This document shows, in pieces, positions 5,131 through 33,604 of a stretch of DNA of 33,604 nucleotides. Under the pieces are notes generated by a model, which saw only the letters and a list, made by a program, of their open reading frames with translations, was not told the DNA's origin and made no database searches. The position numbers were made by a program, and so were the translations under genes. The DNA is from Jimgerdemannia flammicorona (Eukaryota). The number at the start of each line of letters is the position of its first letter. Position 1 is the stretch's first letter. The stretch lies in contig RBNJ01000305.1 in assembly GCA_003990765.1 (NCBI GenBank), forward strand, positions 1-33,604, written 5' to 3'.

Positions 5131-5375
5131 TCTATCTTTTCTTTATCTAAACCTACTTATTAGATTTAGTACTAAACTCTAGATATGTATCAAACTAAAG
5201 GACAGTATACTAAACTACTTAAAAGACAATATTACTCAATCATATATTTTTCTAGTAATATTTGGGTTATATAAACTTCTAGCAATACTCAAGATATTGT
5301 TTTTAAAGAATAGATACTAGTAACATAATAACTGATAAGTATTCTGAAGTATATATTAGGCAGGGCAGCCCTAAC

Positions 5376-7250
5376 GTGTTTGACTGGCAGTATGTGGAGA
5401 AGAGTCATAGCTTGGGAGAAAGCATGCAGAACTTACTAGCTGGAGGATATAGAAGGGGAGGAGGCAGTGCTGAGGGACAGAGGACTGGGAGGATGAGCTT
5501 TGTAGATAAAGTGAAAGAGGGTTATCCAATGACTAGACTAGAGAACTGGCTGAGGAAGAGTAAGGAGACAGTGAGGGCTATAGGGTCTGGTAGAGCAGTC
5601 TATAGTAGTGAGAGCAGCAGAGCTGGAGAAGTAGTGGCTGAGGGGAGTGAGACTACTGATGGTAAGGGAACTACTAATCTGGAAAAAAATCCAGATATGA
5701 CAGTTGATGATAGATCTGAACAGAGAGTGGGCACAAGGCCTGGAGATCTGGCAGATGGTGTGACAGGCATGATAGTGGTACTATTACTCAAGAAATTGAG
5801 ATCAGAATTCACTATCACATTATTTCCAAAGCTTAGTAGTGATAACAAGGATGATTCTGAGGCTTCTGGCCCAAGAGATAAAGGGAGCAGTATCAGTGAA
5901 GTTTTTGAAGAGTCTGGAAGGAGTGGAGGTAGGCTTTAAGAAGGAGAATATACTGTTGAAAGTAATGGAGAAGAGAGTGATAGTGTGGGGAGGTGGTGAT
6001 TTCTATGACCCAGTACTTATACTGAGATCCCCAAGTAGTATAGCTGACAGTACTGATTGTTTTTATAGTGTTGAAGGAAATGGCCAGAAGGTTGATTGTA
6101 GAGGTTATCAAGAAGTATAGAGATATCATGGATATTGGATTTCAGGTCTGAGAAGGCACAGAATTCAGAACAAGAGATATAGACATCAGGGTGCAGCTGA
6201 TAGGCAAAGAGAATAGAGAAGATGAGAGACTAACTGGTAGTTCTCAAATAGAGATCTGTGGAGTGTAAGGTCTCAAGAGTGAAGAGATGCTGGGGAGAAG
6301 AGGACTTGCTAGAGACATTGGAGAATCTGGCTGGAGCTATGGAGAGGAGGAGATTGGCCTAGAAGAAGTTTGAGGTCAAGATAATTGTAGAGATTATGAA
6401 TGGCAAGAAGGTATAGCTGGATCAGACAGCCTGAGAGAGGGTGCAGAGGAGGTATATTTAGAAGAATCTATTGGCTAAGTTAGAGAGAGAGAGTAGCCAG
6501 GGGGACTACCACTGAAGAAGTTGGATTGAGGATGAGTATCTAGACAGGAGAGAAGAGAGCAGCATCAGAGAGAACTCTAGGAGAGGGAGAAGACACAGGG
6601 CTGAGTGTCATTGTGGAGGATGCAGAGATGGCAGAGAGAGAGTGCCCTCAGTATGGAGTATCAGGTAGAGCTAGAGGAGATGATGAATTGCAGAATGTAC
6701 TGGAGGAGGATTGGAATAAGTCAGCAAGAAGGAATGCAGAGGGTGGGCAGGTAGAAGGGGAGAAGAGGGTGGACCAGAGAGTGGCAGAGGCTGAGGTCAA
6801 GGAGAAATAGCTATAGAAAACACTTGAGAATGTGTAGCTGAGGAGCTAGGGAGAGAGAACTTCTGAGTACTAAGTGAGAGATACTGGGGTAAAATTCTAT
6901 ATAGTGAGGAGGTGCCACAAAAACTCTGGGATGAGATAATGGTGACATTGCTAGAGGCCAAGGCATATCAGGTAGATAATGATAGAGAGGTGGTACTTCT
7001 GGCAATTGCAAATGATAAAGCTACATATATGTATATGAGGTCTAAGAAAAGAGTTGACAAAGTAGCAGATGGTGTGTGAGGAGTACTGAATGGAGATAGA
7101 GGCTATGGATAGTGTGGATTGGCAGGAGATCTTGGAGGTATTGGAGGCTCAGCAGAGAGAGACAGATGAACTGGAGGCAGAGAGGAACCTAGATATTGCT
7201 GGTGATGCAGCAAGTATGGAATTATAGAGTAGACAGATATACTTCAAATA
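5376..7250 (+). pseudogene. LINE ORF1 remnant (boundaries approximate)
   Basis: Fragmented purine-rich ORFs between the TSD and ORF2; assigned by position only. Confidence 0.55.
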
Positions 7251-7262
7251 ATATTATTCAAT

Positions 7263-10200
7263 ATGAACAATATAACTAGAATCTTATCTTTGAATATGAG
7301 AAGCAGTGAGATATTGAAATATCTTTGGATAGCTGAAGGAGATAGAAGCAGATTTGTTTCTACTACAGAATATTAGATATAATAGGGACTTAGATATTCT
7401 GGACTAGATAAAGGAATGGGGTGATATGACTGTTTGGTAAGAATGTGTAGACATTCTGGTTAGGAAGAGAAAGGGGGATATTGGAGACATTGGACATTGA
7501 GGGAGTAGAGTAGTGTGGGGAGTTTGGAAGAGACCAGGCTAGAGACCCTTAATGGTTGGGTTATGTTATTGTCCAGTGGAAAGGGGAGAGAGAGTGGAAT
7601 GAATTCAAGGGCTACAAGAGTCTGAAGTATTGGTGGAGGTAGGAATTGATTGTCTAGAGGAGAACTTTAATATAATATATAATAGAAAGATAGACAGAAC
7701 TGATGTTAGAAGGGGAATAGTAGATAGAAGTAGTGGTATAAAAGTCTGGGAGGAAGTTGAATGTCTGAGCTCTTTGGTGGATGCTGGGAGGCTTGGATAG
7801 GGGAATCATAAGGTCTTTACCCACTGGGTAGTGGGGCTGGGCTCAAGGATTAACTGGATGTTGACTGCTGATTACTAAAGAGTTGATATCTGGAGAACTT
7901 TGGAAACTGTTTAGTGTCTGTGGTCAGATCACTGGGGTCTTCTAGGAGAGGGGTGTTTTGGGAGAAGTAGAGAGGGGTCTGGACATTGGTGACTGAATAT
8001 CTCTTTACTAGGGGAGGCCTCTTTATAAGAGGCATAGGTGGTAGATATTAGCTCTAGGATTCTTGGTTAGAGAGAAGAGGGGCTGGGAATTAGAGATCAC
8101 TAGATATGATTGAAATCTGAGATGCAATGGTACTGGGGAGAGGTAGGAAGGATGTAGAGTACTCAGAAGAAGAAGTGAGTGAGGTGGGCCTCTCAGAGGT
8201 TGGCAAGGTTGTTGGCAACTTAGGCAGATCTGTTAAATGATAGTGAGAAAGGAGATTGGTAAATACAGTGGATTAGGCTAGAGATGGAGGAGCTGAAGAG
8301 TATACTGAGGCAAGAGGAGGATCTACAGATTAAGGGCATAGTGACCTGGCTATGGTGGCAGAGATTGGAGGAGAGAGAAAGGCCTATCAAGTTTTTGTCA
8401 TAGCTTCTATAGGTGAGGAGAGTATAGCAGTAGTGAGAGGGGGTTTTGGATGAGGCTGGAGAGTTGGTTGTTGGGATACTGGAGATTCTGGACCAGTTGA
8501 GCAGATGGTGGGGACATTTGTAGAGTGAGGAGGATAGAGGGGTGGGGGTGCTGGACATTGATAGGTACCTAGAGGAATGGCACTCTGATCTGACAGCAGG
8601 CTTAGATGATCTTGGTGCTACTGTCTAAGAAGAAGAGATTTAGCAGGTTCTGATGATGGTGAGCTCTGAGACAACACCAGGGGAGGATAGCTTACAGTGG
8701 AATTTTTGGAAGAAGATAGCAGAAGTCAAGTTGATTCTGAAGAAAATGATAGCAATGTGTGATGAAGTAATTGGCTCAGAGACATGGATTGGGGGGCAGA
8801 GCTTGGGTCTTATGGCTCTGCTGTTTAAGAATAAGGAGAGAAGGGAGGAGTGGAAGAACTGGAGGCCAATCATGCTTCTGGATATGGATTGCAAACTAGT
8901 TATAAAGGTATTGGTAGCTAGGCTGCAAGAGGTGGCTCAACAAGTTCTGGAGACTGAGCAGCAAGGATTTGTGAATGGACAGCTGGTTTTCTTCGACCAA
9001 GAGAAGGCCTATGACAGAGTCTGGTGAATGTGGTTGAAAAGAGTACTAAAGTACATTAGAGTTCTCCCTGGGGTCCAGTGGGTCTTGGTCAGTCTGCTAA
9101 AAGAGAGTTGGGCAGCAATCATAGTAAATGGGCATAGAGGGGTTTTATTTCCTCTGAGCAGAGGAGTGCTGCAGGGGGATCCACTGTTATCTATTCTATA
9201 TGCACTATCCCTGGAGCCTCTTTTGGATAGGATATGGCAAAAGGTGGGAGGGTTGGGTATTATGAGGGTTAATTGGAAGGTGGGGGTCTTTGTCAATGAT
9301 ATAGTGGTCAGGCTGGGATTAGCTGAGGATGTTGCAGCACTGAAAGATACAGTAAAGTAGTATAAGGGTACTTGGGTGCTAAGCTCAACTGATATAAGTA
9401 TGAGACTTTGATGTTGAGAGGAGGGATAGTAAGTGAGAATGTGATTGGAATAATTGTCTCTACAGGAAAGGCTGTTCACTATCTGGGGATTTACTTTTTG
9501 ATATATAGCTCTTTGCTACTATGTAAATAGTGAGAGCAGTGGTTGGCAGAGTGGGGAAGCACTCTCTTGGAGTAGAGTGGTTGCTATGTATCTCTGGCAG
9601 AAAGAGTAATAGTATTGAATATATACTAGTTGTCTAAGCTGTAGTATCTGGAGTACCACTTAAACTTTCTAGTATAGATGATCAAGTGATTGTTGAGAAT
9701 GGCCAGAACCTGGATATAGGTAGGGTGATGGAGTCAGATTGGTTGAGAGATATTGATCTGGTCAGTGGATTAGAGAGGTCTGGGTCTGGTGGATTTTCCC
9801 AAGTGTCTTCACTGCTTGAGGGTGGCTGAAGTGAGTGAGTAAGTTGAGGGACAGAGAGTGGGTTCCCCTCATATAGAGGGTATGGGAGGTCTGGTTCTCT
9901 CTCTATGGTATAACTGGGGATCTTCTATCTCTGGTAGCTTTGGAGGAGAGTTAGAGAATATATTATGATGAGGGGTGGTTGATGGGGTATACCATATTGG
10001 TCTCCAATAGAGGAGTGATGAGAGGGAGGAAGAATGGAGACCTCAGATGTAGAGGTGGGACTTCCTTCTGTTGGGTAGAGCACTAGTAGATAACTTCTAC
10101 TTAGAGGATAGCATAGAGTACCTTTGGAAACATGGGAGAGATCTGTAGCCTGAGGTATGACAGGGGGTAGAGATTGAAGAGAAGTGGGACTGGAACAGTA

Positions 10201-10822
10201 TTTGGCTGTATGGCAAGCAGGTAGTGACATAGCTCCCCCCTAAGTTTTGGGTGGTATGGTGGAGAATTCTACAGTATAATATAATATTGAACTACTGGAC
10301 AGATCACTTGGTAGAAGGAGGTACTCAGAAGTATGAAGAGTGTCTGAATGTTAGACAGGAGAAAGAAGTAGTACAGACTCCTGAACATTGGCTAGGGGAG
10401 TGTAAGGTAATGGGTGACTTTTGGAGAGAGATTGAGGTATGGTTGAGAGTATATCTATCAGGATTGGTGACAGGAGGGAGGTGGGGTGACCTCCAGAGGA
10501 GTTTGGTGGGGGGGTTGAGAGATAAGTAGTTGATATTAGAATAGGTACTGGCAATTTGGGTCAGGCTTATAGGATATTAGCTATATATATTTGAGGAGAG
10601 TCAATGGTTAATGTTGGGGGTGAGAGTGGTTAGATAGAAGTAGCTGATAACAGATATATTGAATAGATAGTAGAGGGGTGGGGGTACTAGTGGAGAATAT
10701 TAGAGATGATTGGTGAAGACAATCTGTAAGAAGAGTGGGGGGAGGATTAGAGTAGCAGGAGGGTTGGTGGTGTTTCAGAAGAATGATATAGAAGAGAGAG
10801 AGTTTCTAAGTGGGATTGGGTG
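7263..10822 (+). pseudogene. LINE ORF2: APE endonuclease + reverse transcriptase + C-terminal Cys/His motif
   Basis: MNNITRILSLNMRS start, DLFLLQ, decayed GDFN (~7660), SRI(D)W, SDH (7924), KNWRPIMLL, DQEKAYDRV, GVLQGDPL, decayed FADD (FVND), EEC...PEHWLGEC. Confidence 0.9.
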
Positions 10823-10953
10823 AGGAGCTCATTTGTATTAGTATATTATAGATAGTTTAGTAATAAAGTGGAAGTTCTTGTAACTATAAAAATAAATAAA
10901 AAAGACAATATTACTCTATTATTTATCACTCAAGTTGGCAATGTTCTCAGGGG

Positions 10954-11077
10954 TGTAATAAATTATTACATACTACCTATAAGCTACTGAAATTTCTGAC
11001 AGAAATTTCCTACAGAAATTTTTACAGAATTTCTGACTAATAGTCATAGTTATTCAAAATAGTATAAACATATATAG
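10954..11077 (+). repeat. 5' part of a B-like LTR, interrupted by family A copy 2
   Basis: tgtaataaattatta... is similar to the reverse complement of ~21020-21150. Confidence 0.75.
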
Positions 11078-11535
11078 TGTAATATAGCAGAACTTAACCT
11101 TGGAAGTATGTTGGGTTTCTGTATCTTGAAAACTTGATCTTCTTTGACTTTGCAGAGTCCTCAGGATATAGGGGTGGATGAGTTTGAAGTATATCTGCCT
11201 GCAGGCTTTACTAGTTTCTTTGCTTTCTCTTTACTTTGAACTATTTTGATCTGAGATTTATTCACTCTAAGATACTGGGGATATTTATACAAGTTTGTGC
11301 ACTGATTCTGCTACTAAATATGTGACTAAGTTATGAGTCATTTCAAAAGTATCAAAATATTTTAATATTGTTAAAATTCTATACTATATCAGGTCTTCAA
11401 TTTTGAATCTTTTGAAATATTTAGAAATTGTTGAAATCAAGGACTACTAACTATAAGGCTATGCTAATTTGGGACTAGTGGTAATTAAGTGTCTATTCCC
11501 TATTTCCTTCTTCTAAATTTAGTTCTACTATCACA
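11078..11535 (-). repeat. 3' LTR of family A copy 2
   Basis: TGTAAT...ATCACA ends; PPT complement acttcctcctga follows. Confidence 0.9.
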
Positions 11536-11572
11536 ACTTCCTCCTGAATAGATGGTCTTATCCCTAAAACAT

Positions 11573-12034
11573 CTATTCAAATTCCCAGGCCTTGACAGTC
11601 TATATGGTCTTATACTGTGTGATCTGTTGTATCACTGTCTCCCAATAGTTTTGCCTTACTAACTTAAAATCAGTAGGAGTTATTTCTCACAAGTGGGCTA
11701 GTACTAGTTCATCATCTTGAAATAACTTATGAATTCTTTTGGTGATGGTGATTTGTGAGTAGGAGAGCTAACACTCTGTGATACAATCATCCTTGGTCAT
11801 TTCTGAGCTCTGGTTGAGTATCTGTCTATATTTGAAGTACTCTTGGAACTCTGTCCAATAATAGTAGACCTTGAAGTGCAAAATTTAAAAGAGATGGATC
11901 TGTATGATACTTTGGATACTATCATAAGATTCTTCTATAGTCAGGGGTTCTGTGGTATTCCATTATCTCTTGATAGCTCTTTGGGCAGTACTAGTGATCT
12001 TGAGTGCTGTTGCTGTATATCAGTTATTAGCTAT
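11573..12034 (-). pseudogene. Accessory ORF3 of family A (decayed, frame intact)
   Basis: 462 nt, same length as 28020-28481, with no indels seen; ATG decayed to ATA. Confidence 0.8.
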
Positions 12035-13206
12035 GGTACTTCTTGAGTCAGTTTTGGTAGATGATAGTGAGGATAATTGTATCTGAGAGTTTTTGTAGCC
12101 AAATGGTGGTCTCTTTTATATCTTGCACAAGATAAGGTCCTTCCCACTTAGGCTCCAGTTTTCATGACTATGAAGCTTCTACCATATTCTGATATATCAG
12201 AACCTTGTCTCCTATCTTGATAATCTTCAGAGGCTTGTGAATCTTTTCTACATTATTTCACTATAGTGCCTGCATCTTGGTTATGTAATCCTTGGCCTTC
12301 TTCCTGATTTGGTATAGTCTCTATATTTCTCCATCCACATATTTCCATACAATATCTCTATTAGATAATGGAGTTTTTTGAGAATCTTCTTCTCTGAAGA
12401 GTATTTTCCAAAGGGTAAAATGGATGCTTTGTGATCAAATATCCTGAAGAGCAGATAATGTTATTGACAGATAGTGATCCTAGTTTTCATAGTTATCACA
12501 GATCTTAGTGATAACATACTTGAGGGTCTTGTTGGTCCTTTCTGCCTATCCATTTCCTTGAGAATGGTATGCTATGGTCCAAATGTACTGGATCTTATAC
12601 TTCTTATAGAGAACCTCAAAGAACTGGTTTGTGAATTCTGTTCCTCTATCTGTGGTTACTTATATTGGGGTCTTGAACTGGCAGATGATTTCTTTGTAAA
12701 GGAAATCAGTAATTGACTATATATTGACTTCCTTGAGGGGTTCTGCCTCTATCTATTTTATAAAAAGATTTACAATGATGATGATGTATCAGTTACCAGT
12801 CAAAGTCAAGGGTAGGGGGCCAATTACATTTATTACCATATGGATGAATAGTACTAGTTTTATGTATACTGATCCTGAAGCTTAATTTCATTGATCTTAT
12901 TTCTATTTCTGGTATTTGTCACAGGTCTTAACAAATTATCTGATATCTTCCTCCATTTATTGTTCTTCTTGCTTTATCATATATGTTTGTTTCTCTTAGA
13001 TGACCAAGTTTATATACTGATTTCATTGCTTACTCCTTCTTATATTCTAGTATAACTAGTAGCTTTCCTTTCTTCAATATTTCTCCATCAGTTTCAAATT
13101 GTTTCCATGTTCTGTTGATAATCATTTGTATCCATTCTTCCAGATATTGGGGTATCTTTCACTGTCCCAGGTAGGTGATGATTCCATAGTAGAGCTTCTT
13201 ATTCAT
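12024..13206 (-). pseudogene. Gypsy integrase remnant
   Basis: Begins MNKKLYYGIITYLG; colinear with 28471-29668. Confidence 0.88.
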
Positions 13207-20700: not shown

Positions 20701-21150
20701 TATAAGAAAACTATATACTGATAGAATTAATATATTACAGATAATTAAGATAACTATCAGCTTTAAGTTCTGAGTTCTTATGAGGAAGTACTGAGTTCCA
20801 ATTGTCTGTTATAGTAGTATAGTCTAAGTATCACTTTTGGATTGTTGTATTGATAAAAGTACTATACTTATATTCCAAGTTAATCGGGCTTAGAATTATT
20901 AACAAGTTAGATTTGAGAGTTCTATAATAAGAATATTACTTTATTCTTATATTTCAAGAAAGAGAAGCTGATATAAGTTTAGAGCTATAGCTAAATATAT
21001 TATACTAGATATGTCTATATATAGTTATATATACTATATTCAGTATCTATAACTATTAGTTGAAAATTCTATAGAAATTTTTATTAGAATTTTCATCAGA
21101 ATTTCTATTAGAAATTTTAGTAGCTTATAGATATATAATAATTTATTACA
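20701..21150 (-). repeat. 5' LTR of element B
   Basis: Minus strand starts TGTAATAAAT; repeat of 4645-5130 with a ~30-bp deletion. Confidence 0.9.
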
Positions 21151-21233
21151 GTTAATATTATAATGGTTAATTAAATTAGGGACTATAATTAAAAGATAGA
21201 TATTTGGTCATAGTACCTAAATTTGATTTCTAA

Positions 21234-21534
21234 TATAATATAGTATTATACTTAGCAGTTATATAATCTCACAGTTGGATAATTTATACAATTATACAAC
21301 TGTATGAAATTTACAATTATATGGATTGTACAGATATATAGATCTCACAACTATATAAAATAACTTACAGAAAAAGAAATCTTAACTTAGCTACTATATA
21401 GTAGTAAACTTATATATAATCTCTATATTTAGAGTAAATAAACCTCAGATCAAAATAGTTTAAAGCATGAGACAAGAACTAGTAAGCCTGTAGGTAGATA
21501 TACTTCAAACTTATCCACTCCTATATCTGAGTAT
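21234..21534 (+). repeat. Family A-related LTR fragment, interrupted
   Basis: 21400-21534 (aataaacctcagatcaaaatagtttaaagc...gatatacttcaaact) matches the reverse complement of family A LTRs; the upstream part does not. Confidence 0.75.
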
Positions 21535-21626
21535 TGTAGAATACTTGGGAAGAGTAGAGAGAAGAAAACAGTAATTATTTATTGATAGCTTATATACTTT
21601 TATATATATTGATGATATTTATATAA
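21535..21626 (-). repeat. Probable end fragment of another LTR
   Basis: Begins TGTAG exactly where the A-like LTR breaks; TATA-like and AATAAA on the minus strand. Confidence 0.35.
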
Positions 21627-21931
21627 TGTAATGGTGACCTCAGAATGATGACATCAGCACAGGAGACAGCCTTTCCTTGCAAGCCACCAGATCAAAGCAC
21701 AAGAAGATCATATGGCATACAAGATGAGCAATGATGACCAACTGTGAGTCATTGTGACCACAGCATAAGTATCCTAAAGAATATAAAAGAAGGATCAAGG
21801 AACTGCAGTAGCAGCAACCAACAAGAACCACCAATCCCAAAATAACTCAAAGACTTACCACAAATGAAATACCTGCTGCCCACCAAACCTCAAGATCAAG
21901 GAACCACCAAGGTATCTCAGTCGAGGAAAGG

Positions 21932-22723
21932 ATGTTCCAAGACATCAGAAGAGCCATGGGGACCCGCTCAAGAAGGACTCCTAGTGTCAACCTGGGTACT
22001 GCAGACCTCTATCACTTCATTCTCTACTGCCGCAAAATGGAAACAAGGATCACCATTGCCACTAAATGCCTCCAAATGTGGCAGGAATACGAAATAGGAA
22101 ACCTCCTCTACCAGGAGTTCCCACAGGCCAGCCCTCAAGAGCTACAAGATGCCACTCCCATGGACCTATGTAAGGTAAGAACAGCAAAGAAGATCTATCA
22201 GATCTTCAGGCATGCACCATGGTTGATCCCCAACTTGGAGTATGTTAGAGTCTCAGACTTCAGAGATCTGTCATCCCACCATATCAATGCACTAGAAGCC
22301 AGGGTAGCTGCAGAAACCCAGTCCACTATCACCCTCAATAGTGAAGAAGTAGAAGACTTCTGGCACCCTATCCTTCAGGACAACCCAGACCAATTCCTGC
22401 AAGGATTGATCTCAGTATTCCAAGGCCCAAGCATCCAGGTTAGATCCCCCCAAGACCCCACATTTGTCCCCTATTTTGTGGAAGAGAACCTCATAGACTG
22501 GAGAGCTCCAGATCTTATTCCCGATTTTCCCACCACTGACGAATATGATGACGTCATTGGCGATGACGTCATCCCATGCGACTTCAACATACGTGAGACG
22601 CACGACATACCCGAAGTACGCGAAACGCATGACCTACATGACAAATTCGCGGATCTCATCTCCTTCAGTGATGATGATGATAATGATGATGAAGCCCCCA
22701 TAATCCTGAACTTTCTGCTCTAA
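21932..22723 (+). CDS. 263-aa protein of unknown function inside the LTR; N-terminal half similar to family A ORF3, acidic C-terminal tail
   Basis: Uninterrupted ORF; by-eye match WQEYEIGNLL...TAKKIYQIF...L..V...F..L..HH vs WAEFQEYFKLGQVL...IAKRIHKLF...L..V...F..V..HH. Confidence 0.75.
   Translation: MFQDIRRAMGTRSRRTPSVNLGTADLYHFILYCRKMETRITIATKCLQMWQEYEIGNLLYQEFPQASPQELQDATPMDLCKVRTAKKIYQIFRHAPWLIPNLEYVRVSDFRDLSSHHINALEARVAAETQSTITLNSEEVEDFWHPILQDNPDQFLQGLISVFQGPSIQVRSPQDPTFVPYFVEENLIDWRAPDLIPDFPTTDEYDDVIGDDVIPCDFNIRETHDIPEVRETHDLHDKFADLISFSDDDDNDDEAPIILNFLL
22548..22573. promoter_or_regulatory. Two CRE/ATF-type palindromes (ATGACGTCAT, GATGACGTCATC)
   Basis: Exact TGACGTCA twice, 15 bp apart, ~330 bp upstream of the TATA box. 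Confidence 0.55.
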
Positions 22724-22894
22724 GTTCTTTGTTACACCAGATAATGCCAGCACCGGTATTCTGAGGTGACATGAAATTGTTCCAGCACAGATATTTTGAT
22801 GTGATACTAAATAATGCCAGCCCTGGAACTTAGTAGTTTTAGTTATTGGAATTTATATTTAGCTTTATATCTTAGCAACCATTGAATTATATTT

Positions 22895-22930
22895 TATATA
22901 AATACCCCTCTTATTTCCTCTGAAATAAAG
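22895..22930 (+). promoter_or_regulatory. LTR TATA box and polyadenylation signal
   Basis: tataaata...aataaa, the same arrangement as in family A LTRs. Confidence 0.6.
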
Positions 22931-23136
22931 TCAGTTTCTCTCAGTGCAATACACAATCTCTTGCAAACAATCTAAGAGATAACAAGATAGTTAAAGATAA
23001 GAAGTTTGAGGACTATAAGACCTTGGAAAGGCACTCCAATAAGAACTTGCTTATAACAACTTGAGTTAGTCTAAGAGATATACCTTGAAGAGAATCTGGC
23101 ATATTTGAAGGACTCAGCGACTACTACATGACAACT

Positions 23137-23153
23137 TGGTGCCCATTGGCTGG
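23137..23153 (+). other. Primer-binding site TGGTGCCCATTGGCTGG (tRNA not identified)
   Basis: TGG 3 nt after the LTR CA end; decayed equivalent at 3469-3485 in A copy 1. Confidence 0.75.
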
Positions 23154-23253
23154 TGATTCAAGACAAATCCCTCACTTTCAAGCTGAAAAATGAACAACCC
23201 CCACAACAACTACCCTGACTACAAGAGTCACCCCTGCAAGAATTCAAGACAAG

Positions 23254-26200
23254 ATGGAAATGTGTCCCCCCACATTCTATGGATATACTACTGAAGAGTC
23301 AATCCTGACCTTCATTGAAGACTTTGAACAATTCGCTGCCATACGAGCTCTTGGTGTGGATGCTCAATTGGCCCTTCTACCAGTCAGCCTTAGAGGACCT
23401 GCCAGAGACAAGTTCAATGCAGCCACTATTGCTGGTGCTGATGCAGTCAAACTTGCCAACATGAAGGTCTTCCTCAGAACAACATATTATATCAAAGAGA
23501 TCAAACAAGCTCTCAAGGATCAACTCAATACTATCTGCCAGGGACTTAGTGAAGATCCCAACTCATTCTATATCCGAATTTGCCACCAGATTGTCTTGGC
23601 TGGCTATGATGATGCCCTCAAGGAACAAATAGTGGATTCAACCTTCCTCAAAGGAGTTCACCCCGAAATTGTCCTAGCAATCTGGTCTACCCCAGCTGCA
23701 CTGACCCTTGATCAGAAAGTGGTCTTTGCGCAGAGATATTAGACTGCCAGACATCCTGCTGAACACTCAATGGAGAAAATAACTGGTATCAAGATGGAGC
23801 CATCAAAGCCAACTAGCATCCTACCTGCCACAGTTGTAAACAGACAACCAACCTCACCTACCCCCAAGATAGCCAAAGCTGACCCAGTGGAAGAACTCAC
23901 CAAGCAGTTTGCCAAGATGACTGCACACCTTGGTGATGTTGTTAGAGAAGTCCAAAGCACCAACAGGAGACCAGTGCAGAGATTTGCAGCTGCTACAGAA
24001 GAATGCAATAACATCACATGCTTCAGATGTGGAGAAGAAGGCCACTATGCAAAGAGTTGCATGACTGAAACAAGACACAAAGCCCAACCAAGCAATGCTA
24101 GCAGAACCAGAGAACAAACCAATGCAGTAGTCATTGAGGAGATTGGTGACACTGATGAAGAGTATTATGAGGAGCTTGAATTCTACCCTGCTACTGAAGG
24201 TACCAGAACCCAGTCCAAGCCCTATGACAAGAAGAGCAATAGCAAGCCAGTTGGAAGACCAAAGAAGACCCCAGCTGTCACTATTCAAAGCAAGACCCAA
24301 CCTGAGGAGATTGATCAAGACATGGAGTTAGACGAAGCTGTCTACCAAATTATTGAAGGCACTACTCCAGTCTCAGGAGAAAGTGAAAGCAAGGAGGAAC
24401 AAGAATCAGACATCACCCTCAAGGTCAAGAAGTTTCACCCTGAAGCCAAGATCCCAGAATACAAGACTGAAGGAGTCATAGGAATGGACCTTGCCAGCAT
24501 TCAAGATGCTACCCTTGAACCACAGACCACCACCCTACTTGGCACTGGAATTAGAGTCAAGCTGCCAGAAAACCATGCCAGAATCATCAAGACCAGAAGC
24601 AGTCTGGCCAAAAGCGAAATCTCAGTTGAAGGAGGAGTAATTGACCCTGATTACACTGGCGAGATCTTTCTCATAGTCAGAAATCAGAACCACACCACCC
24701 CCTTCGAAGTCAAGAAGCATGACAGGATTGGCCAGATGCTGATCCATGAAGTCAAGAAGCCCAAGATCATAGAAGCCATCGAACTCATCAAGACCAAGAG
24801 AGGAGAACAAGGCTTTGGATCTACTGGAAGAGGAGCCTATGCTGCCACTAAGCTTACTGAGCTTGAGTATAAGAAAGACAAGGACCAGAACAAGCACACA
24901 TATACCATTGGAGAAAACTTTCCCCTGGAGGAACAACTTCTCAAGATCCTGCACCAGAATGAAGGAGTACTTGCTACAGACTTTAGGGATATCCACAATC
25001 AAGAACCCAAGTACTACCATGAAGTTGACACAGGTGATACCAAGCCTATCTACCAGAAAGCCAGACCCATACCACCTGCCTACAGAGAGTGGCTGCGAGC
25101 TGAACTCAAGGAAATGGAGGAAGCCGGAATCATCAAGCAAGCTATCAGCCCCTGGGCCTCACCCATTGTCCTAGCCCCGAAGAAAGGAAGCAAGCCTGGA
25201 GAGTTTGCACCAAGACTCTGCATTGACTACAGGAAGCTCAATGCCATCATCAAGAAGGATAGGCAGCTCTTGCTGAATATTCAAGAAATCCTTACCACTC
25301 TTGGAAGTAAAGCCAAATACTACACTACCTTGGATCTGTTCTCAGGCTTCCATTAGATCGGTCTCACTCAAAATGTTAGTGAGAAATCTGCCTTCATCAC
25401 ACCTGATGCCACCTATATCTACTTGCAAATGCCATTTGGAATGTGCAATGCCCCAGCAAGTTTCCAGCGAATGATGAACAGAGTCTTCAGCAATGAGATT
25501 GGAAAATGGCTCTTTGTCTATGTTGATGATATGATCATCTTCAGCAATACTGCATGGGAACATATCAATCACATACAGCTAGTCCTCAAGAAACTCAAGG
25601 AGCATGGCCTCTACATCAAGTCCAAGAAATGTAAGTTTGCAGCTCAAGAAATCGCCTACCTAGGACACCTCATCAACCAGACTGGAATCCACACAGACCC
25701 CATGAAGATCGAGGCTGTTGCAGCCTACCCGAGACCTAGAACAACCACAGAAGTCCACGCCTTCCTTGGACTGGCCAGCTACTACAGAAGATTCATCAAA
25801 GAATACTCCAACATTGCAGCACCTATCTACGAGCTACTGAAGAAGGAGACCAAATTCGAATGGACCAAGGAGTGTCAAGAAACCTTCAATGAACTCAAGA
25901 CCAGGTTGACCCAAGTACCCATCCTTAGAAGACTAGACTGGAACCTAGAATTCATCCTGCAGACAGATGCAAGTGCTATAGGACTTGGAGCAGTCCTAGC
26001 TCAGAAGAAAGATGGACATGAATATGTCATCTCCTATGCAAGCTGAGATACCTGCAGAGCAGAACAGAACTACGAGTCATGCAAGCTTGAATGCTTAGCA
26101 GTGGTCTGGGTGGTAGACAAGTTCCACTACTACCTAGCTGGGAAACACTTCACCATTCAAACAGACCATTCTGCTCTTGCCTGGCTATTCCATACTCTGA

Positions 26201-26349
26201 ACCCCAAAGGAATATATGCCAGATAGATCTACAGGCTGCAAGAGTATGACTGTACTATCAAGTACCACTCAGGAAAGACCAACACCAATGCTGATGCACT
26301 CTTGAGGACACCCCGAAACACCCCCATCAAGACTATTCAACATGAATAA
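23254..26349 (+). pseudogene. Single-frame gag-dUTPase-RT-RNase H polyprotein (protease missing; four premature stops)
   Basis: ORFs 23254, 23770 and 25423 are in frame; CFRCGEEGHYAKSC knuckle; RLCIDYRKLN, MPFG, YVDD, TDAS, TDH, ADAL; stops at 23740, 25354, 26044 and 26224 are single transitions. Confidence 0.95.
24418..24828 (+). other. Trimeric-type dUTPase domain
   Basis: All five motifs present: GMDL, RSSLA, GGVIDPDYTGEI, DRIGQML, RGEQGFGSTG. Confidence 0.95.
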
Positions 26350-27508
26350 GGGGCTATACTACATATGGATTAATCAGCTACCTTGGGCAGCAGAAGATGC
26401 CCAACCACCTCGAACCCTGGACAATCACCATCATCAACTGGACTTGGAAACAGTTTGAATTAGACAACACTACACTCAGAAAAGGAGGAAAGCTAGTAAT
26501 ACCTTAACACAAGAAGTATCAAGTAATGAAGGAAGTATATGAGCAAGGATACTTAAGAGAAACCAACACATACGACAAGACAAGAAGAACTATGTGGTGG
26601 CCCAAGATAGAAGAAGACCTGTGCCAATTTGTCAAAGGGTGTGATAAGTGCCAAAAACAGAAATAAGATCAGTAAGACCAGGCACCTGGATCACCAAGAA
26701 TTGAGCCTATCCCCTTCTACTACATTGCAATGGATATCATTGGACCACTACCAGTAACACTATCAGAAAACTACTATATTATAGTTATTGTAGACCTCTT
26801 CACCAAATAGATAGAGGCAGGAGTATTACAAGAAGCCAATGCCCTCTCTATAGCTGATTTCCTACACCGAGAAATCATCTGCTACTACAAGACACCAAAG
26901 CAAATCACAACAGACTGCAGCACAGAATTTGTTAATGGATTCCATGAGATAATGTACCAGAAATACAAGATCCAGCACATCAAGACCACTGTGTACCACC
27001 CTCAAGGAAATGGACAGACAGAGAGAACCAACAAGACCCTCAAGAACATCCTAACAAAGATCTCAGAGACATACGAGAATTGGGATAACTATCTCCCAAC
27101 TGCCCTCTCTGTTCTATGAGACATATGGTCACAGAGCACACATTTTACCCCATAAGAGCTGCTCTTTAGAGAAGAAGATTCTAATGGAACCTCAGCCATA
27201 AATCTAGACCTAACTTAGAGACAGATTGATGCAGAAATCTGGAGACTACACCAAATCAGAAAGAAGGCTGAAGATTACATCACCAAGTTACAAGCACTGA
27301 CAAGAAAGAATGTGGAAAAGAATCACAAGGTTCTAGAACCCATCCAAATTGGAGAAAAGGTTCTACTGTATTGAAATATGGTAGAAGCCTCATGGTCATG
27401 AAAACTGGAGCCCAAATGGGAAAGACCCTTCTACATGTAAGATATCAAGGGAACTACCTTCTGGCTTAGAAAAATCTCAGGGACCATACTGCCTACTATA
27501 GTATATAG
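26342..27508 (+). pseudogene. Integrase of element D (separate frame, decayed)
   Basis: WWP...CDKCQ, MDIIGPLP, VDLFTK, ITTD, YHPQGNGQTERTN, GPY/F-like KLEPKWE. Confidence 0.92.
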
Positions 27509-27982
27509 TGTAATGTAGCGGACGCTTACTCTTGAAAGTACGTCGGATTTCTGTATCTTGAAAACTTAACTATTCTGACTCCCGCAGAGTCTCTTGAAGT
27601 TGTAGGGGAGGGTGGGTGAGTTCGAAGTGTATCTGCTTGCAGGCTTACTAGTTCCTTTACTATCTCTTTGCTTTGAACTATTTCGATCTGAGGTTTATTT
27701 CCTTGAAGATACTGGGTTATTTATACAAGTTTACTAGCTATGAGATGGCTAAGTAATAAATGAGTCATTTGGACTTTGTCGAAATATTTAGACAGTGTCT
27801 AAATACTATACTAAATCGAGATGTTCAATTTGGATAATGTCTAAGAATTTAGACAATGTCTAAGAATTTAGACAATGTCGAAATTGAGGACTGCTAACTA
27901 TAAAGCTATACTACTTTGGGAATGGGTGCGATCAAGTGTCTATTCTCTATTTCCTTCTTCCAAATTTGGCTGTACCATCACA
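27509..27982 (-). repeat. 3' LTR of family A copy 3 (474 bp)
   Basis: Minus strand TGTGATG...CATTACA; TATA and AATAAA at ~27695-27725. Confidence 0.92.
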
Positions 27983-27994
27983 ACTTCCTCCTGA
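27983..27994 (-). other. Polypurine tract (tcaggaggaagt)
   Basis: Abuts the LTR; identical at 11536-11547, decayed at 894-905. Confidence 0.8.
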
Positions 27995-28019
27995 ATAGAT
28001 GGTCTCATCCCTGAGGCAT

Positions 28020-28481
28020 CTATTCAAACTCTCAGGCTTCAACTGTCTGTATGGTCTTATACTGTGCAATTTGCTGTATGATTGTTTCCCAATGATGTCT
28101 TCTCACTTTCTCGAAGTTGGTGGGGGTTACTCCTCTCAGGTGGTCTATTGCTGGTTCATCTTCTCAGAATAACTTGTGAATTCTTTTGGCGATAGTGATC
28201 TGTGAGTGGGAGAGTTGACACTCAGCAATCCAGTCCTCTTTGGTCTTTGCTGGATCCTGATTGAGCACCTGTCCAAGCTTGAAGTACTCTTGGAATTCTG
28301 CCCAATATTGATAGGCTCTAAAGTGCGAGATCTGAGAGAGATGAGTCTGTACAATATTCTGAATATCCTCATAGTATAGCTCTATGGTCAGAGGCTCAGT
28401 GGTGTGCCATTGTCTTTTGATGGCTCTTTGGGCAGCACTAGTGATCTTGAGTGCCATCACAGTACTTTTGTTACTGGCCAT
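28020..28481 (-). pseudogene. Accessory ORF3 of family A, 153 aa, unknown function (two premature TGA stops)
   Basis: Track ORF 28164-28481 continues past TGA as EDEPAIDHLRGVTPTNFEKVRRHHWETIIQQIAQYKTIQTVEA(W)EFE stop. Confidence 0.85.
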
Positions 28482-29668
28482 GATATTTCTTGAGTCAGTT
28501 TCAGTAAATGGTAGTGGGGATTATTGTGCCTGAGGGTTTTCATAGCCAAAAGGTGGTCCCTTTTATATGTATCTTGTACAAGGTAAGATCCTTCCCACTT
28601 AGGCTTCAGTTTTCATGACCATGAAGCTTCTACCATATTCTGATATATTAGGACTTTGTCTCCTATCTTGATAATCTCTAAGGGCTTGTGGGTCTTTTCT
28701 GCATTCCTCCATTGTAGTGTCTGCACCTTGGTTATGTAATCCTCAGCCTTCTTCCTGATTTGGTGTAGTCTCTGTATTTCCATGTCCATATGTTTCCATA
28801 CAGCATCTCCATTGGATGATAGGGTTCCTTGAGAACATTCTTCTCTAAATAGCATTTCTCGAGGGGTAAAGTGGGTGCTTTGTGATCAGATATCCTGGAG
28901 AGCAGATAATGCTATTGGCAGATAGTGATCCCAGTTCTCGTAGTTATTACAGATCTTGGTAATAATATTCTTGAGGGTTTTGTTAGTCCTTTCTACTTGT
29001 CCATTTCCTTGGGGGTGATAGGCTGTGGTCTGAATGTGCTGGATTTTGTACTTCTTGTAGAGAACCTCGAAGAGCTGGTTCATGAATTCTGTTCCTCTAT
29101 CTGTAGTTACTTATATTGGGGTCTTGAACTGGCAGATAATTTCCTTGTGGAAGAAATTGGTGATTGACTGTGCATTGGCTTCCTTGAGGGGTCCTGCTTC
29201 TATCCACTTCATAAAAAGGTCTATGATGACAATGATGTATTGGTTACCAGTCAGGGTTAAGGGTAGAGGGCTGATTACATCTATTGCTATATGGGCAAAT
29301 GGTACTGGTTCTATGTGTGCTGATCCTGGTGCTTGATTCCGTTGGTCTTGTTTCTGTTTCTGGCATTTGTCACATGTCTTGACAAATTGTCTGATATCTT
29401 CCTCCATCCCTGGCCACCATATTGTTCTTCTCACCTTGTCATATATATTCATTCCTCCTAGATGGCCAAGTTCATATACTGATTTCATCACTTGCTCCTT
29501 CTTGTGTTCTGGTATGACCAGTAGTTTTCCTTTCTTCAGTGTTTCTCCATTGGTTTTGAATTGTTTCCATGTCCTGTTGATAATTGTTTGTGTCCATTCT
29601 TCCAGATGTTGGAGCATCTTTCGCTGTCCCAGATATGTGATAATTCCATAGTAGAGCTTCTTATTCAT
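28471..29668 (-). pseudogene. Integrase, no chromodomain
   Basis: (H)ELGHLG...CDKCQ, AIDVI, IDLFMKW, YHPQGNGQVERTN, IGDKVL...; ends LKKYHGQ stop. Confidence 0.93.
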
Positions 29669-32600
29669 GATTGATTTGTTAGTTGGAGGTAGTTCAAGGT
29701 GTCCATGAGAGAGCATCTGCATTGGAATTTGTTCTTCTGGGGCAGTGTACGATGGTTACATCATAGGCTTGTAACTTCATTATTCATCTGGCATAGATTC
29801 CCTTGGGTTGTCCAGTTGTCAGTAGCTAGGTGAGAGCTGAGTAGTCTGTCTGGATGGTGAAGTGTCTTCTGGCCAGATAGTAGTGGAACTTTTCCACAGC
29901 CCAGATGACTGCAAGGTATTCCAACTTATAGGACTTGTATTCTTTTTCAGCCCCTCAGGTTCCGTGGCTAAGATATGCAATGACATACTCTTTTTTGTCT
30001 TCTTTTTGAGCTAAGACTGCTCCTAGTCCCTGTGTACTTGCATCTATCTGAAGGATAAATTCTTGGGTCCAATTGGGTCATCTGAGGATGGGTGCCTGAG
30101 TTAGTCTGATCTTGAGTTCATCAAATGCTTTTTGTTGTCTGCTGGTCTACTGGAACTTGGTATCCTTCTTGTTGAGTTTGTAGATTGGACCTGCAATGTT
30201 GGAGAATCCTCTAATGAATCTGCGATAGTAAGAGGTAAGTCCCATGAAGGCTTGGGCTTCTGTGACAGTAGTGGGCCTTGGGTATGCTGCTACTGCTTGT
30301 ATTTTGAGAGGGTCTGTGTGTGTTCCATCTCGATTGATAATATGGCCAAGATAGGAGATCTTGATTTCTACAAACTTGCACTTCTTGGGTTTGATATAAA
30401 GGCCATGTTGTCTTAGTCTCTCCATTATCTACTGTATGTGCTGCAGATGTTCCTCAGGTGTCTTGCTGTAGATGATTATATTATTGACATAGACCATCAT
30501 CCATCTTCCCATGTCATAGCAGAAGATTTTGTTCATCATTCGCTGAAAGCTTGCTGGTGTATTACACATTCCAAATGGCATTCGTAGGTAGATGTAGATT
30601 CCGTCTGGGGTGATGAAGGCTGACTTTTCACTTGCCATTTCTGTGAGTCCGATTTGGTGAAATCCTAAGTATAAGTCCAAGGTGCTGTAGTACTGTGCTT
30701 CATCTCCCAGTGTTATAAGGATGTCACTGATGAGCGGCAGTGGTTGGCAATCCTTCTTGGTAACTGCATTGAGCTTTCTGTAGTTGACACAGAGCCTTGG
30801 GGCAAATTCTCCAGGTTTGCTTCCTTTTTTCGGGGCTAGTACAACTGGTGAAGACCAGGGGCTGCTGGCTTCTTTGATGATGCCGGCTTCTTCCATCTGC
30901 TTGATTTCTTCTCTGAGCTATTCTTGGTAGGCTGGCGGGACAGGTCTTGTCTTCTGATAGATTGATTCAGTATCTCCAGTATCTACCTCATAATAGTAGT
31001 GTGGGGTCTTTCCCTTGATATTCTTGAAATCTGTGGCAAGAACATCCTCGAATTTGTGGAGTATTTTCTTGAGTTCCTCTTTGAGTGGGAATTCATCTCC
31101 AATGGTGTAACTGTGCTTACTTGTGTTTTTCTCCTTCTTATGCTTGAGTTCGGTGATCTTGGTACTGGTGAATACTCCTCTTCCTGTAGATCCAAATCCT
31201 TTCTTTCCTCTTTTCATTTCCTCCAGGTTCTTGACTTCTTTGATTCTTAGCTGTATGATTGGGAAGATCAACATTTGTGCCAATTGGTCCTTCTTCTTGA
31301 CTGGGAATGGAATTGTAGGATTGTGGTTCCTAGCAATGAGTAGAATTTCTCCAGTATAGTCTAAATCAATGACTCCTCCTTTGATTGTGATTTTGCTTCT
31401 AGCCAGGCTGCTTCTTGTCTTGAGAATCCCGACATGATCCTTTGGGATGGTCATCTCTAGTCCAGTTGCGAGTAGGGTGGTTGTCTGGGGTTCGAGTACA
31501 GTTTCTTCTACTGTAGTGATGTTTATTCCGGCTGCGTTTTCTGACTTGTATTCTGGCAAGACTGCATCAGAGTGGATCTTTTAAATCTTGACCTTGATTT
31601 CTTCTTCATCATCACTGTCCTCCAGGAGGGCTGGTGGTTCGTTGTCTTCCTCCTTCTCTTCTTCCTTGATCTGTTTTTTGAGAGCTTTCTGCCTTCTTTC
31701 CTGGTAGATCTTCTTGGTTCCGATGGTGCACTGGTAGCAATCATTGACATGCTCCATACAGTACATCTTGATTCCATGAGGACAGACTCCTTGTGGGGCA
31801 TAGTCTTCTGTGATCTTCTTGCACCATTCTTCTTCACTCATCCATCCAACTTTCTTCTTCTTTGGAGTAGTCACCATATAAGCTTTCTCTTGCTCACTCT
31901 CTTCTTCCTCCATATTGGGCAGGACTCCTTTGTTGACATTGATGGGAATTCGTATCTTCTGTTCCTGATAGGTGATCTGCATCTTCTGAGCATTAAGATC
32001 GATTACCGCCTTGGCTTTGTGAAGCCATTGATTGCTGATGAGGATGTCATAGTTGGTGGCATTGGTTATGATTACATCTACTGAGATTGTTGCTCCTCCG
32101 ATCTTGATAGGAACATCTCAGATCTTTCCCAGAGGTGTGGCTCTTGTGTCATTGGCTGTGACGAATACTAGCTTAGTTGCTTCTTCCACATCCCAACCTA
32201 GGCGATCTGCTGCCTTCTTACTGAGGAGACATCCTCCTGCTCCCATATCAATGATGGCTTCAAAGGTTCTATCTTCGATTTGGCATATTGCATAAGCAGA
32301 GGTTTTGCGATTGTCCTCACTTTCTTCTCCTGAGTCCTCTTGAACATTATTGGCCTCAATTATCTTCCATCCTTGTTCCTTGGTTGTTTTGGCAAGTCCA
32401 AACCTCATTTGCTGTCTGAATATTGGGATTTCTGCGAGCTGACCAAAGGTTGCATTGACCTTTTATTGACTGAGATCCTTGAAGATATCATACTTGAAGG
32501 TCTTGATCTTGCAAAGCTTCTTTTCTTTTTCTTCTTCACTGGCTGGAGTGGTTCCTCAGATGATATCTTGAACTGCTTACTCCAGCTCAATATCTTAGTC

Positions 32601-33604
32601 CATCTCTTCGGCTTAGCTTTCTGTGTCAGTTTCCATCCACTTTTCCAATGAGTTCTTCTTGGGTCTTCCTGGCGGTCTCTTGTAGGGTTCTTTGTGAGCA
32701 TCCTTCTTAGTGGTCTGAGCAGGATAGGCCTCCCATTCCTCTTCATCGGATTCTCTGATTTCTTCAAAGGTGATTGTATTGGCCTGCTCCTTGTTTCATG
32801 TGGCATTGCTTGGTTGAGCCTTGCATTTGGTTTCACTTATATATTTATAGGAGTAGTAGCCTTCTTCTCCACAGCTATAGCAGGTACCTTTCTTCTTGTC
32901 TGAGGTAGCAGCAAACTTCTGAACAGGGTGGTAATCTCTTCCTCAGATTTCCTTTACCACATCTCCCAGGTGGGCAGTCATTTCAGCAAACCTTTTGGTG
33001 AGTTCCTCCATAGAGTCACTGTTCTTTTGCTGCTCTGTAGCTTTTGGCTGAGGTGTGTTTCAATTGATCATTGTGGTGGGGATCACACTGGTTGCCTTGG
33101 GTGCCTCAATTCTGACTCCTGTAACTCTCTCTATTGTATGGTCTTGTGGGTGTCTGGCTATCCAGTATCACTGAGCATAGGTGACCTTCTGTGGCAGATC
33201 CAGAATCACTGGTGATGAGCAGATGGCCATGGCTATTTCTGGATGGACTCCTTTCATGAAGGTTGCTTCGGCTACTTGATCTCAGATAGCAGCAGCATAA
33301 TCTGCAAGAATTATCTGATATCAGATTCTGGTATAGAATGTGTTTGGGTCCTCGCTCATTCCTTGGCATGTTGTATTGAGCTGATACTTCAGGGCTTGCT
33401 TGATCTCATCTGTGTAATATGTATTTCGAAGCTAGGTCTTCTGTGCTGTCAGTATGGCATCAGCATCATTTCCTGCATGGGTTGCAGCTGTGAATACTGC
33501 TCTGGCAGGGCCTTGTAGGCTGAAGGGCATGAGGGCTACTTGCTGTGCTGCTGTCAGAGTCCTTACAGCAGCATACTGCTCGAAATCGTCAATGAAGGTG
33601 ATGA
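29661..33604 (-). pseudogene. gag-protease-dUTPase-RT-RNase H polyprotein
   Basis: AIIDMGAG protease site (~32235-32260), dUTPase 31182-31598, RT motifs 30429-30896, decayed CCHC ~32840-32885. Confidence 0.95.

Follow-up and report, generated by a model that had tools for sequence, protein, structure and literature searches.

A third gene, ORF3, in a dUTPase-bearing Ty3/gypsy retrotransposon lineage from Jimgerdemannia flammicorona

The contig RBNJ01000305.1 of Jimgerdemannia flammicorona (assembly GCA_003990765.1) was analysed over its positions 1 to 33,604, referred to below as the window. The minus strand of the window holds three copies (c1, c2, and c3) of one family of Ty3/gypsy long terminal repeat (LTR) retrotransposons, as mapped by tblastn. 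Between the integrase (IN) gene and the 3′ LTR, the copies contain a third reading frame, ORF3, located at positions 28020–28481 in c3, 11573–12034 in c2, and 935–1381 in c1. ORF3 is a genuine third gene of a non-chromoviral, dUTPase-bearing Ty3/gypsy lineage, and has evolved under purifying selection. The best overall explanation, to which we assign a probability of about 0.55, is that ORF3 encodes a separately translated accessory protein, which is probably a protein-binding adaptor.

Coding signal of ORF3

The three homologous ORF3 stretches reported in the initial annotation were recovered by tblastn and by profile search, all on the minus strand. The independent E-values (i-E) of the profile matches are 6.7e-47 for c3, which spans 153 codons and a stop, 7.2e-39 for c2, and 3.1e-20 for c1, the most decayed of the three. 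The initial annotation had also stated that the copies keep the ORF, which is incorrect, since none of the three is open. ORF3 of c3 is free of insertions and deletions and is interrupted twice by TGA, at codons 106 and 150. In that of c2, six stops interrupt the frame and the start codon reads ATA instead of ATG. Translated straight through, that of c1 shows 15 internal stops, and it has four deletions of 15 nt in total. Frameshifts are confined to c1. The three window copies of ORF3 are thus dead relics, riddled with GC-to-AT transitions. A scan of metagenomes identified a single locus, L001, which is a nearly complete element of 6479 nt with an intact ORF3 at positions 5795–6253. Transitions make up 61–71% of the differences between the window copies and L001, and 562 of the 951 differences of c1 are C>T or G>A. 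Among the CpG cytosines of L001, 32% are changed in c3, 44% in c2, and 66% in c1, and the ratio of observed to expected CpG in the window is 0.10. The transition bias and the loss of CpG fit the deamination of methylated cytosine in silenced repeats.

The proportions of non-synonymous (pN) and synonymous (pS) differences were obtained by Nei-Gojobori counts from comparisons of L001 with the window copies. ORF3 differs from that of L001 with pN of 0.21–0.24 and pS of 0.59–0.78. For the part of ORF3 outside the overlap with IN, the in-frame pN/pS ratios are 0.27 for c3, 0.30 for c2, and 0.35 for c1. The two other frames of the same DNA give ratios of 0.59–1.00 and 1.18–1.57. For the pair of L001 and c3, the ratios are approximately 0.27 for gag, 0.27 for the protease (PR)–dUTPase region, 0.20 for the reverse transcriptase (RT)–RNase H (RH) region, and 0.19 for IN. 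Comparison of the window copies of ORF3 with each other gives ratios of 0.28–0.38. The initial annotation had named a ratio near 1 with frequent frameshifts, or a match to an already described Gypsy domain, as observations that would speak against a conserved gene. The ratios are instead well below 1, frameshifts occur in the oldest copy alone, and Pfam searches found no match to a described Gypsy domain. The coding signal of the dead copies stems from selection during the active period of the lineage.

ORF3 is present in all four copies with a visible region between IN and the LTR (c1, c2, c3, and L001), and is thereby a conserved sense additional ORF (aORF). ORF3 belongs to the element, with a constant place between IN and the LTR. 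A chance open frame, or a transduced fragment of host DNA without a role for the element, would be expected to lack a known domain and to be broken in every window copy, as observed. However, the purifying selection is frame-specific, ORF3 is present in every copy with a visible region downstream of IN, intact copies and divergent subfamilies exist elsewhere, and no cellular homologue emerged when 1.84 billion representative proteins were searched with the profile. An origin by chance or from the host is therefore extremely improbable and already largely refuted.

The ORF3 protein and its relatives

A search of 5.8 billion clustered proteins yielded seven relatives of ORF3 among nine candidates. 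One of them (P0003) is an intact protein of 153 residues with 76% identity, and a cluster member (P0011) is also intact and 153 residues long. The profile search of representative proteins gave five matches only. One of the five, a protein of 165 residues (P0018), is a true remote member of the family; hhalign aligned it over 112 columns at 32% identity, with a probability of 96.4% and an E-value of 1.4e-09. Used as a query, it led to 11 further clusters of proteins of 94–168 residues, with members of up to 169 residues encoded on contigs of up to 7980 nt. These proteins form a second subfamily, 140–169 residues long, with 21–26% identity to the first. The database relatives are all unnamed or labelled "hypothetical protein", and originate from metagenome sources (JGI, ENA, Logan, and NCBI); the resemblance to repeat-associated proteins of Glomeromycotina suggested in the initial annotation found no support. 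A pattern scan of viral contigs gave 30 matches, none of which was a relative, and searches of the ESM Atlas with P0003 and another protein (P0034) returned unnamed or unrelated clusters, or no usable match. An alignment of 21 sequences from both subfamilies (A5) has a conserved core, in which the motif EFQ.Y..G...N is followed by TIA.R.Y.LFRD...A..H..G. A tryptophan or phenylalanine is located three residues from the C-terminus in both subfamilies, within endings such as ...EAWEFE or ...ELDEWDL. The ORF3 family appears from these comparisons to be previously unannotated and to comprise at least three divergent subfamilies. Separately, a protein of 455 residues (P0017) is built of units of about 64 residues (...SPEIAARICEVLNDDGTA...), which match positions 97–131 of the ORF3 profile six times (E 4.2e-06). 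The match to the core helix motif of ORF3 may be due to chance or to distant relatedness.

A divergent ORF3-type domain was detected on the plus strand of the window by tblastn and six-frame profile search, at positions 21923–22315 (profile positions 6–136, i-E 1.4e-06). It is part of an intact ORF of 263 codons at 21932–22723, with the ATG at 21932 and the stop codon at 22721–22723. The first approximately 130 residues of the product are of ORF3 type and are followed by a long acidic tail, and comparison of the ORF with A5 by hhalign gave a probability of 84% and an E-value of 7.5e-06. The tblastn map shows no integrase upstream of this ORF. The ORF lies between TGTAATGG at 21627 and ...CATGACA at 23133, and the sequence ACTTGGTGCCCATTGG, which resembles a primer-binding site (PBS) and is also present in L001, starts at 23134. 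The GC content jumps at 21627, and TGTAATGG is similar to TGTGATGG, with which the LTRs of the other copies begin. A TATA box (22895–22904) and an AATAAA signal (22924–22929) are both positioned downstream of the ORF. The simplest reading of this arrangement is that 21627–23133 may represent the 1.5-kb 5′ LTR of a plus-strand element, the U3 region of which contains the 263-codon gene. If so, the gene would still be the 3′-most cistron of the genomic RNA, and the boundary between the polypurine tract (PPT) and the LTR alone would be shifted.

The structure of the ORF3 protein was predicted by AlphaFold2 from the 21-sequence alignment. The best model has a predicted local distance difference test (pLDDT) score of 84.0 and a predicted template modelling (pTM) score of 0.80, and contains eight helices and a low-confidence linker around residues 26–29. 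The pLDDT scores of the five models are 84.0, 81.3, 72.3, 52.7, and 52.2. An earlier model calculated from 13 close sequences was poor (pLDDT 56.2), and the Foldseek search performed with it was meaningless. In six family members, the highest Kyte-Doolittle mean over 19 residues is 0.19–0.74 and the grand average of hydropathy is −0.52 to −0.80. The last 25 residues carry a net charge of −2 to −11. The isoelectric point (pI) of the core is 5.95–9.51 in the six members, with values of 8.64 and 9.51 for two proteins of the first subfamily and 5.95–6.65 for four of the second. ORF3 is therefore predicted to be a soluble, all-helical protein of about 153 residues, in which a linker separates an N-terminal helix from a helical bundle and the C-terminal tail is acidic and contains tryptophan (...EAWEFE). 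The view of the initial annotation that ORF3 is not env-like is borne out, since the protein is hydrophilic, lacks a hydrophobic stretch or transmembrane segment, and has no match to a Pfam env family.

Comparisons with databases gave no known relative in sequence or fold. No Pfam family was assigned to the ORF3 read-throughs, to the proteins P0018 and P0022, or to the 21 members of A5; scattered matches at E 0.01 or weaker were to TBK1_ULD in five of the 21 members and to HTH_Tnp_Mu_2 in one. Sequence searches of the PDB gave best E-values of 1.5 with the single sequence and 0.49 with the profile. Foldseek searches with the good model found no match at E ≤0.001 in the PDB (best 0.51) or in BFVD (best 0.25), and VIA-align found none at Z ≥5 among 48,161 chains. 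The caulimovirus TAV family Cauli_VI was not matched by any of the 21 family members at E-values up to 5–10. Structures of ParB/KorB type resemble the model at the noise level for helical models (Z <5), namely KorB (1r71_A; Z 3.9, rmsd 4.0 over 88 residues) and Spo0J (1vz0_A; Z 3.6). The initial annotation had suggested that ORF3, which occupies the place of the chromodomain in chromoviruses, may be a targeting or nucleic-acid-binding module. This suggestion found no backing in Pfam matches, in the range of core pI values, or in the fold search, where the only DNA-binding folds have Z scores (3.6–3.9) at the level of noise.

Junctions, expression, and possible function

The stop codon of the gag-PR-dUTPase-RT-RH frame and the start codon of IN overlap in the octamer ATGAATAA, located at 29661–29668 in c3, 13199–13206 in c2, and 2557–2564 in c1 (all minus strand), at 26342–26349 in the related plus-strand element, and at 4612–4619 in L001. 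The octamer is invariant in these five copies, which are otherwise about 70% alike and include the heavily mutated c1. The last codons of the RH frame are not expected to be conserved; therefore, the ATG within the octamer has been retained for its role as a start codon and the TAA for its role as a stop codon. It follows from this overlap that the integrase of this lineage is a separate ORF in the +1 frame. The tricistronic reading of the initial annotation is supported at the level of layout, in that gag-PR-dUTPase-RT-RH, IN, and ORF3 overlap and occupy frames 0, +1, and +2.

At the second junction of c3, the minus-strand sequence TAT CAT GGC CAG TAA (28485–28471) contains the ATG of ORF3 (28481–28479) and the TAA of IN (28473–28471). 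The ORF3 start overlaps the last IN codons by 11 nt, and ORF3 is in the +1 frame relative to IN, as originally described. The initial annotation had also equated this arrangement with that of the RH/IN junction and regarded ORF3 as coupled to the integrase stop codon. The cATG..TAA arrangement is real and identical in five of five copies at the RH/IN junction, whereas the 11-nt geometry of the IN/ORF3 junction is peculiar to c3. Measured from the A of the ORF3 ATG to the end of the IN stop codon, the distance is 11 nt in c3, 8 nt in c2, 20 nt in c1, and 44 nt in L001, so the coupling was overstated. A further in-frame TAG at the 44-nt position is common to all four copies. The ORF3 ATG always precedes the IN stop codon and is flanked by A at −3 and G at +4; the start context is ACCATGG for L001 and copies of the c2 type, and ATCATGG for c3. 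The ATG is kept in three of the four copies, and the fourth, decayed copy differs from it by one transition. A methionine in the same alignment column starts 15 of the 21 family members, in two subfamilies of 21–26% identity. The tail of IN that overlaps ORF3 is variable in length, and ORF3 residues 1–15 are conserved. The retained ATG in a strong context, the aligned methionine, and the combination of a variable IN tail with a conserved ORF3 start favour a separate protein over a fusion, and ORF3 is likely to be produced from its own AUG.

Less firmly, we propose that ORF3 could be translated by termination-linked reinitiation on the full-length RNA, as is also proposed for IN at the invariant AUGAAUAA. 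In the systems treated in the relevant part of PMC5972666, overlaps of stop and start codons drive reinitiation in caliciviruses, influenza B virus, and the non-LTR retrotransposon SART1, and the AUG lies a few nucleotides ahead of the upstream stop. The stop and restart codons of the element studied here overlap or adjoin in the manner associated with a termination upstream ribosome-binding site (TURBS), both in ATGAATAA at the RH/IN junction of all five copies and at ORF3, where the ATG precedes the end of the IN stop by 8–44 nt. The UGGGA motif of such sites, complementary to helix 26 of 18S rRNA, was not found within the few tens of nucleotides at which it would act.

Several observations weigh against a separately translated adaptor protein made in this way. 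None of the three window copies of ORF3 is intact. L001 itself is interrupted in gag and in IN, by one in-frame stop each. The LTR sequences at its two ends bear no recognisable likeness, differ in their short tandem repeats, and were left unpaired by the repeat finder; L001 may therefore be an old copy or a chimeric assembly. The length of the IN/ORF3 overlap is not conserved. UGGGA is absent within 160 nt upstream of the IN start in all five copies, and upstream of ORF3 it is present only at −112/−116, in three of four copies, where it corresponds to the Trp-Glu codons of the IN motif KWEG. A conserved RNA structure was not found at the IN/ORF3 junction, for which the RNAalifold consensus energy is −4.39 kcal/mol. 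The best fold match of the model reaches a Z score of 4.2. The adaptor function is read from the shape and charge of the predicted protein, the core pI of which is near neutral. Finally, the ORF3s of LTR retrotransposons are typically separate transcription units expressed from spliced messages, according to the passages on them in PMC5408684.

The last point also speaks for a spliced or subgenomic mRNA, which is the main alternative to reinitiation and deserves serious consideration at somewhat lower odds. The same gene would then be expressed from a spliced or internally promoted, 3′-coterminal message like the env and accessory genes of retroviruses, and the overlap with the IN stop codon would reflect compact packing; as an account of all the observations, we consider this possible but doubtful. 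A conserved CTCAG is located approximately 55 nt upstream of the ORF3 ATG, no ATG intervenes between them in L001, c2, and c1 (c3 has an ATG at −62, just upstream of the CTCAG site), and the Kozak context suits ordinary scanning. However, the CTCAG stretch also encodes the conserved C-terminus of IN, so its conservation needs no splice site. Moreover, no splice donor was identified, and no spliced contig reaching ORF3 was seen among the contigs of four sequencing runs, none of which is recorded as RNA. The runs listed as containing the sequence are soil metagenomes and one coded organism, each with a small share, and include none of RNA. These contigs contain three joints, none of them informative for the expression of ORF3. 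One joint, inside ORF3 (28295–28407), is not intron-like; its ends are TT..TG, and it is present in a single contig with a side of 26 nt. Alternatively, ORF3 could be a C-terminal extension of IN, reached through programmed +1 frameshifting at the IN stop codon or ahead of it and functionally in the place of the chromovirus chromodomain. ORF3 is in the appropriate frame, which contains no stop in the 13 codons preceding the ATG of L001 and c3, the same +1 step joins RH to IN, and +1 shifting is used by Ty1 and Ty3. Nevertheless, such an extension is improbable given the retention of the ATG and its strong context, the methionine aligned across subfamilies, and the drift of the IN stop position among the copies, which means that a fixed shift site next to a stop does not exist. 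A search for longer, fused forms gave 214 candidates, none of which scored, which is weak evidence.

Based on the predicted structure, a function can be proposed tentatively for the separately translated protein. With its small size, solubility, helical bundle, exposed N-terminal helix, conserved acidic aromatic tail, near-neutral core, and lack of an enzymatic signature, the predicted protein looks like an adaptor that binds other proteins. The helical bundle might hold a component of the element, such as IN or Gag, and the acidic aromatic tail might bind a host factor, although we consider this particular assignment of partners somewhat doubtful. ORF3 could instead be a regulator directed to nucleic acids, either a transactivator that binds the DNA of the LTR and activates it through an acidic tail, for which foamy-virus Tas provides the comparison, or a TAV-like reinitiation factor acting on its own polycistronic RNA. 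Such a role would suit the last gene before the 3′ LTR, a protein with a helical core and an acidic aromatic tail, and the weak resemblance of its fold to the DNA-binding domain of KorB and to Spo0J. The element also appears to need two reinitiation or recoding events, and TAV-stimulated reinitiation is an established strategy, as stated in the section of PMC5972666 concerned. We regard a regulator as unlikely, since Z scores below 5 are within the noise for helical models, neither a helix-turn-helix nor a Cauli_VI family was matched in Pfam, and the cores of the second subfamily are acidic to neutral. A bolder possibility, to which we give only small weight, is a new class of accessory protein in a truly polycistronic element, with both IN and ORF3 produced by reinitiation. 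ORF3 would hold ribosomes or host factors for this purpose, or use its acidic tryptophan tail to connect the integration complex with a partner in the host, and the gene would be mobile within the element, being placed before the PPT in c1–c3 and L001 and inside the U3 of a 1.5-kb LTR in the plus-strand paralogue.

Element architecture and relation to known systems

The window is AT-rich, with a GC content of 0.20–0.46, and consists almost entirely of nested retroelements. The GC content drops to 0.20–0.28 in its oldest parts. The element c3 occupies 27509–33604 of the minus strand and continues past the end of the window. Its gag (CCHC)-protease-dUTPase-RT-RNase H frame (29661–33604) also runs off the window end. 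The integrase of c3 (28471–29668) has an H2C2 zinc finger and an rve core and ends with ...LKKYHGQ*; its frame is interrupted by stops and, close to the 3′ end, by a frameshift, and its last 11 nt overlap ORF3. The PPT AGGAGGAAG (27984–27992) is located 27 nt past the ORF3 stop codon and is followed by the 3′ LTR (27509–27982; 474 bp, TGTGATG...CATTACA). The element c2 extends on the minus strand from 11078 to approximately 16275 or beyond, with the PPT at 11537–11545 and the 3′ LTR at 11078–11535. The element c1, at approximately 414–3960 of the minus strand, has lost the region from gag to RT through an internal deletion and retains a PPT remnant (895–903), the 3′ LTR (414–893), and the 5′ LTR (approximately 3493–3960). 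The order of IN, ORF3, a 27-nt spacer, PPT, and LTR is common to all copies. In L001, ORF3 is likewise followed, within positions 6254–6479, by a spacer, the PPT (caggaggaag), and the LTR. Positions 1–77 of L001 contain the tail of an ORF3 and a PPT ahead of the 5′ LTR, a pattern suggestive of tandem elements or of an assembly that is circular or chimeric.

The related plus-strand element (21627–27508) contains gag from 23254, dUTPase, RT, RH, and IN. At 27508/27509, the end of the c3 3′ LTR (...CATTACA) abuts the IN of this element, approximately 10 codons before the IN end; because the c3 insertion cuts the element there, its region from IN to the 3′ LTR is outside the window. At 24369–24409, the plus-strand element lacks a part matching residues 333–635 of the L001 gag-pol (protease region), and zf-CCHC runs directly into dUTPase. 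The order of Pfam domains in L001 and the window ORFs is zf-CCHC, aspartyl protease, dUTPase, RVT_1, RT_RNaseH, Integrase_H2C2, and rve, which is that of Ty3/gypsy elements (Metaviridae). The LTRs of 456–480 bp, running from TGTGATG to CATTACA, the PPT AGGAGGAAG, and the PBS-like ACTTGGTGCCCATTGG, which adjoins the LTR in L001 and the plus-strand element, agree with this assignment. The dUTPase domain, between protease and RT, was identified in ORFs at 30921–31580 (minus strand), 23743–25353 (plus strand), and 774–4616 of L001 (Pfam E 1.9e-25 to 2.7e-28). No chromodomain was matched by Pfam in the IN or ORF3 proteins, which places the lineage apart from chromoviruses, and the IN of L001 ends with ...LKRYHG soon after the KWEGPY module. 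Elsewhere on the plus strand, the stretch 5000–11000, probably a non-LTR element, has a very strong GC skew (+0.36 to +0.55) and contains an RT fragment at 8644–9024 (RVT_1, E 9.3e-07, 29.2 bits compared to a cut-off of 29.6). Direct repeats at 4645–5113 and 20701–21137 (plus strand) are 85–90% alike and 16 kb apart, and the latter sits just upstream of a decayed c-type LTR on the plus strand (approximately 21158–21626).

[quoted passage not shown] The plant sense aORFs share with ORF3 their position, orientation, and occurrence in all copies of a family rather than in single transduced ones; they are mainly env-like, whereas ORF3 has 153 residues and no transmembrane segment and overlaps the IN stop codon. 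The bdelloid rotifer elements Vesta, Juno, and TelKA have the same order of PR-dUTPase-RT-RH-IN followed by a family-specific, non-env ORF3 (PMC5408684, in the passages describing these elements). The types of ORF3 reported in that paper comprise env, GDSL esterase, DEDDy exonuclease, coiled-coil, and transmembrane proteins, and ORF3 of the element studied here matches none of them by Pfam, in a comparison by named type. Set beside the rotifer elements, the window is further characterised by its CpG ratio of 0.10. The fungal Gypsy element PosPlaTy3-5 has dUTPase between PR and RT, as here, and an "add. ORF" of undefined function is also mentioned in the pertinent part of PMC2864245. Those fungal elements are chromoviruses, in contrast to the IN without chromodomain found here, and the additional ORF was compared by its description only.

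Calicivirus VP2, influenza B virus BM2, ORF B of hypovirus CHV1, and SART1 resemble the present element in that the AUG of the downstream ORF coincides with the upstream stop or precedes it by a few nucleotides (in the present element, AUGAAUAA and AUG...UAA/UAG), and the gene order in such termination-reinitiation systems gives falling amounts of the downstream products, as far as the corresponding sections of PMC5972666 and PMC2699510 describe them. The element differs from these systems in that UGGGA/TURBS is absent at the usual distance and the ORF3 overlap is variable and reaches 44 nt, and its junctions are known from sequence alone. We know of no LTR retrotransposon shown to use termination-reinitiation, and a full-text literature search gave none among the matches listed, which is not proof of absence. 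HIV Vpr and Nef and MMTV sag are small helical accessory proteins of complex retroviruses or products of genes in the U3 of the LTR. ORF3 is similarly small, non-structural, and 3′-proximal, and its plus-strand paralogue is seemingly inside U3; however, ORF3 has no sequence or fold similarity to retroviral accessory proteins in the BFVD and PDB comparisons. A full-text literature search combining arbuscular mycorrhizal fungi, LTR retrotransposons, and ORF3 returned nothing relevant by title and abstract. What is new here is the family of accessory proteins, which matches no named ORF3 type, together with the unusual layout of doubly overlapping cistrons.

Extra genes are common in LTR retrotransposons, and almost none has a known role. 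ORF3 combines a clear signal of selection with a division into at least three divergent subfamilies, a confidently predicted fold without structural neighbours, and a conserved acidic tryptophan tail that invites a search for binding partners. With both IN and ORF3 behind overlaps in which the AUG precedes the stop, one of them invariant, the element is a candidate system for the translation of several cistrons from one eukaryotic retrotransposon RNA. For annotation, the findings imply that the "hypothetical proteins" of approximately 150–170 residues that belong to this family in soil metagenomes are retrotransposon genes.

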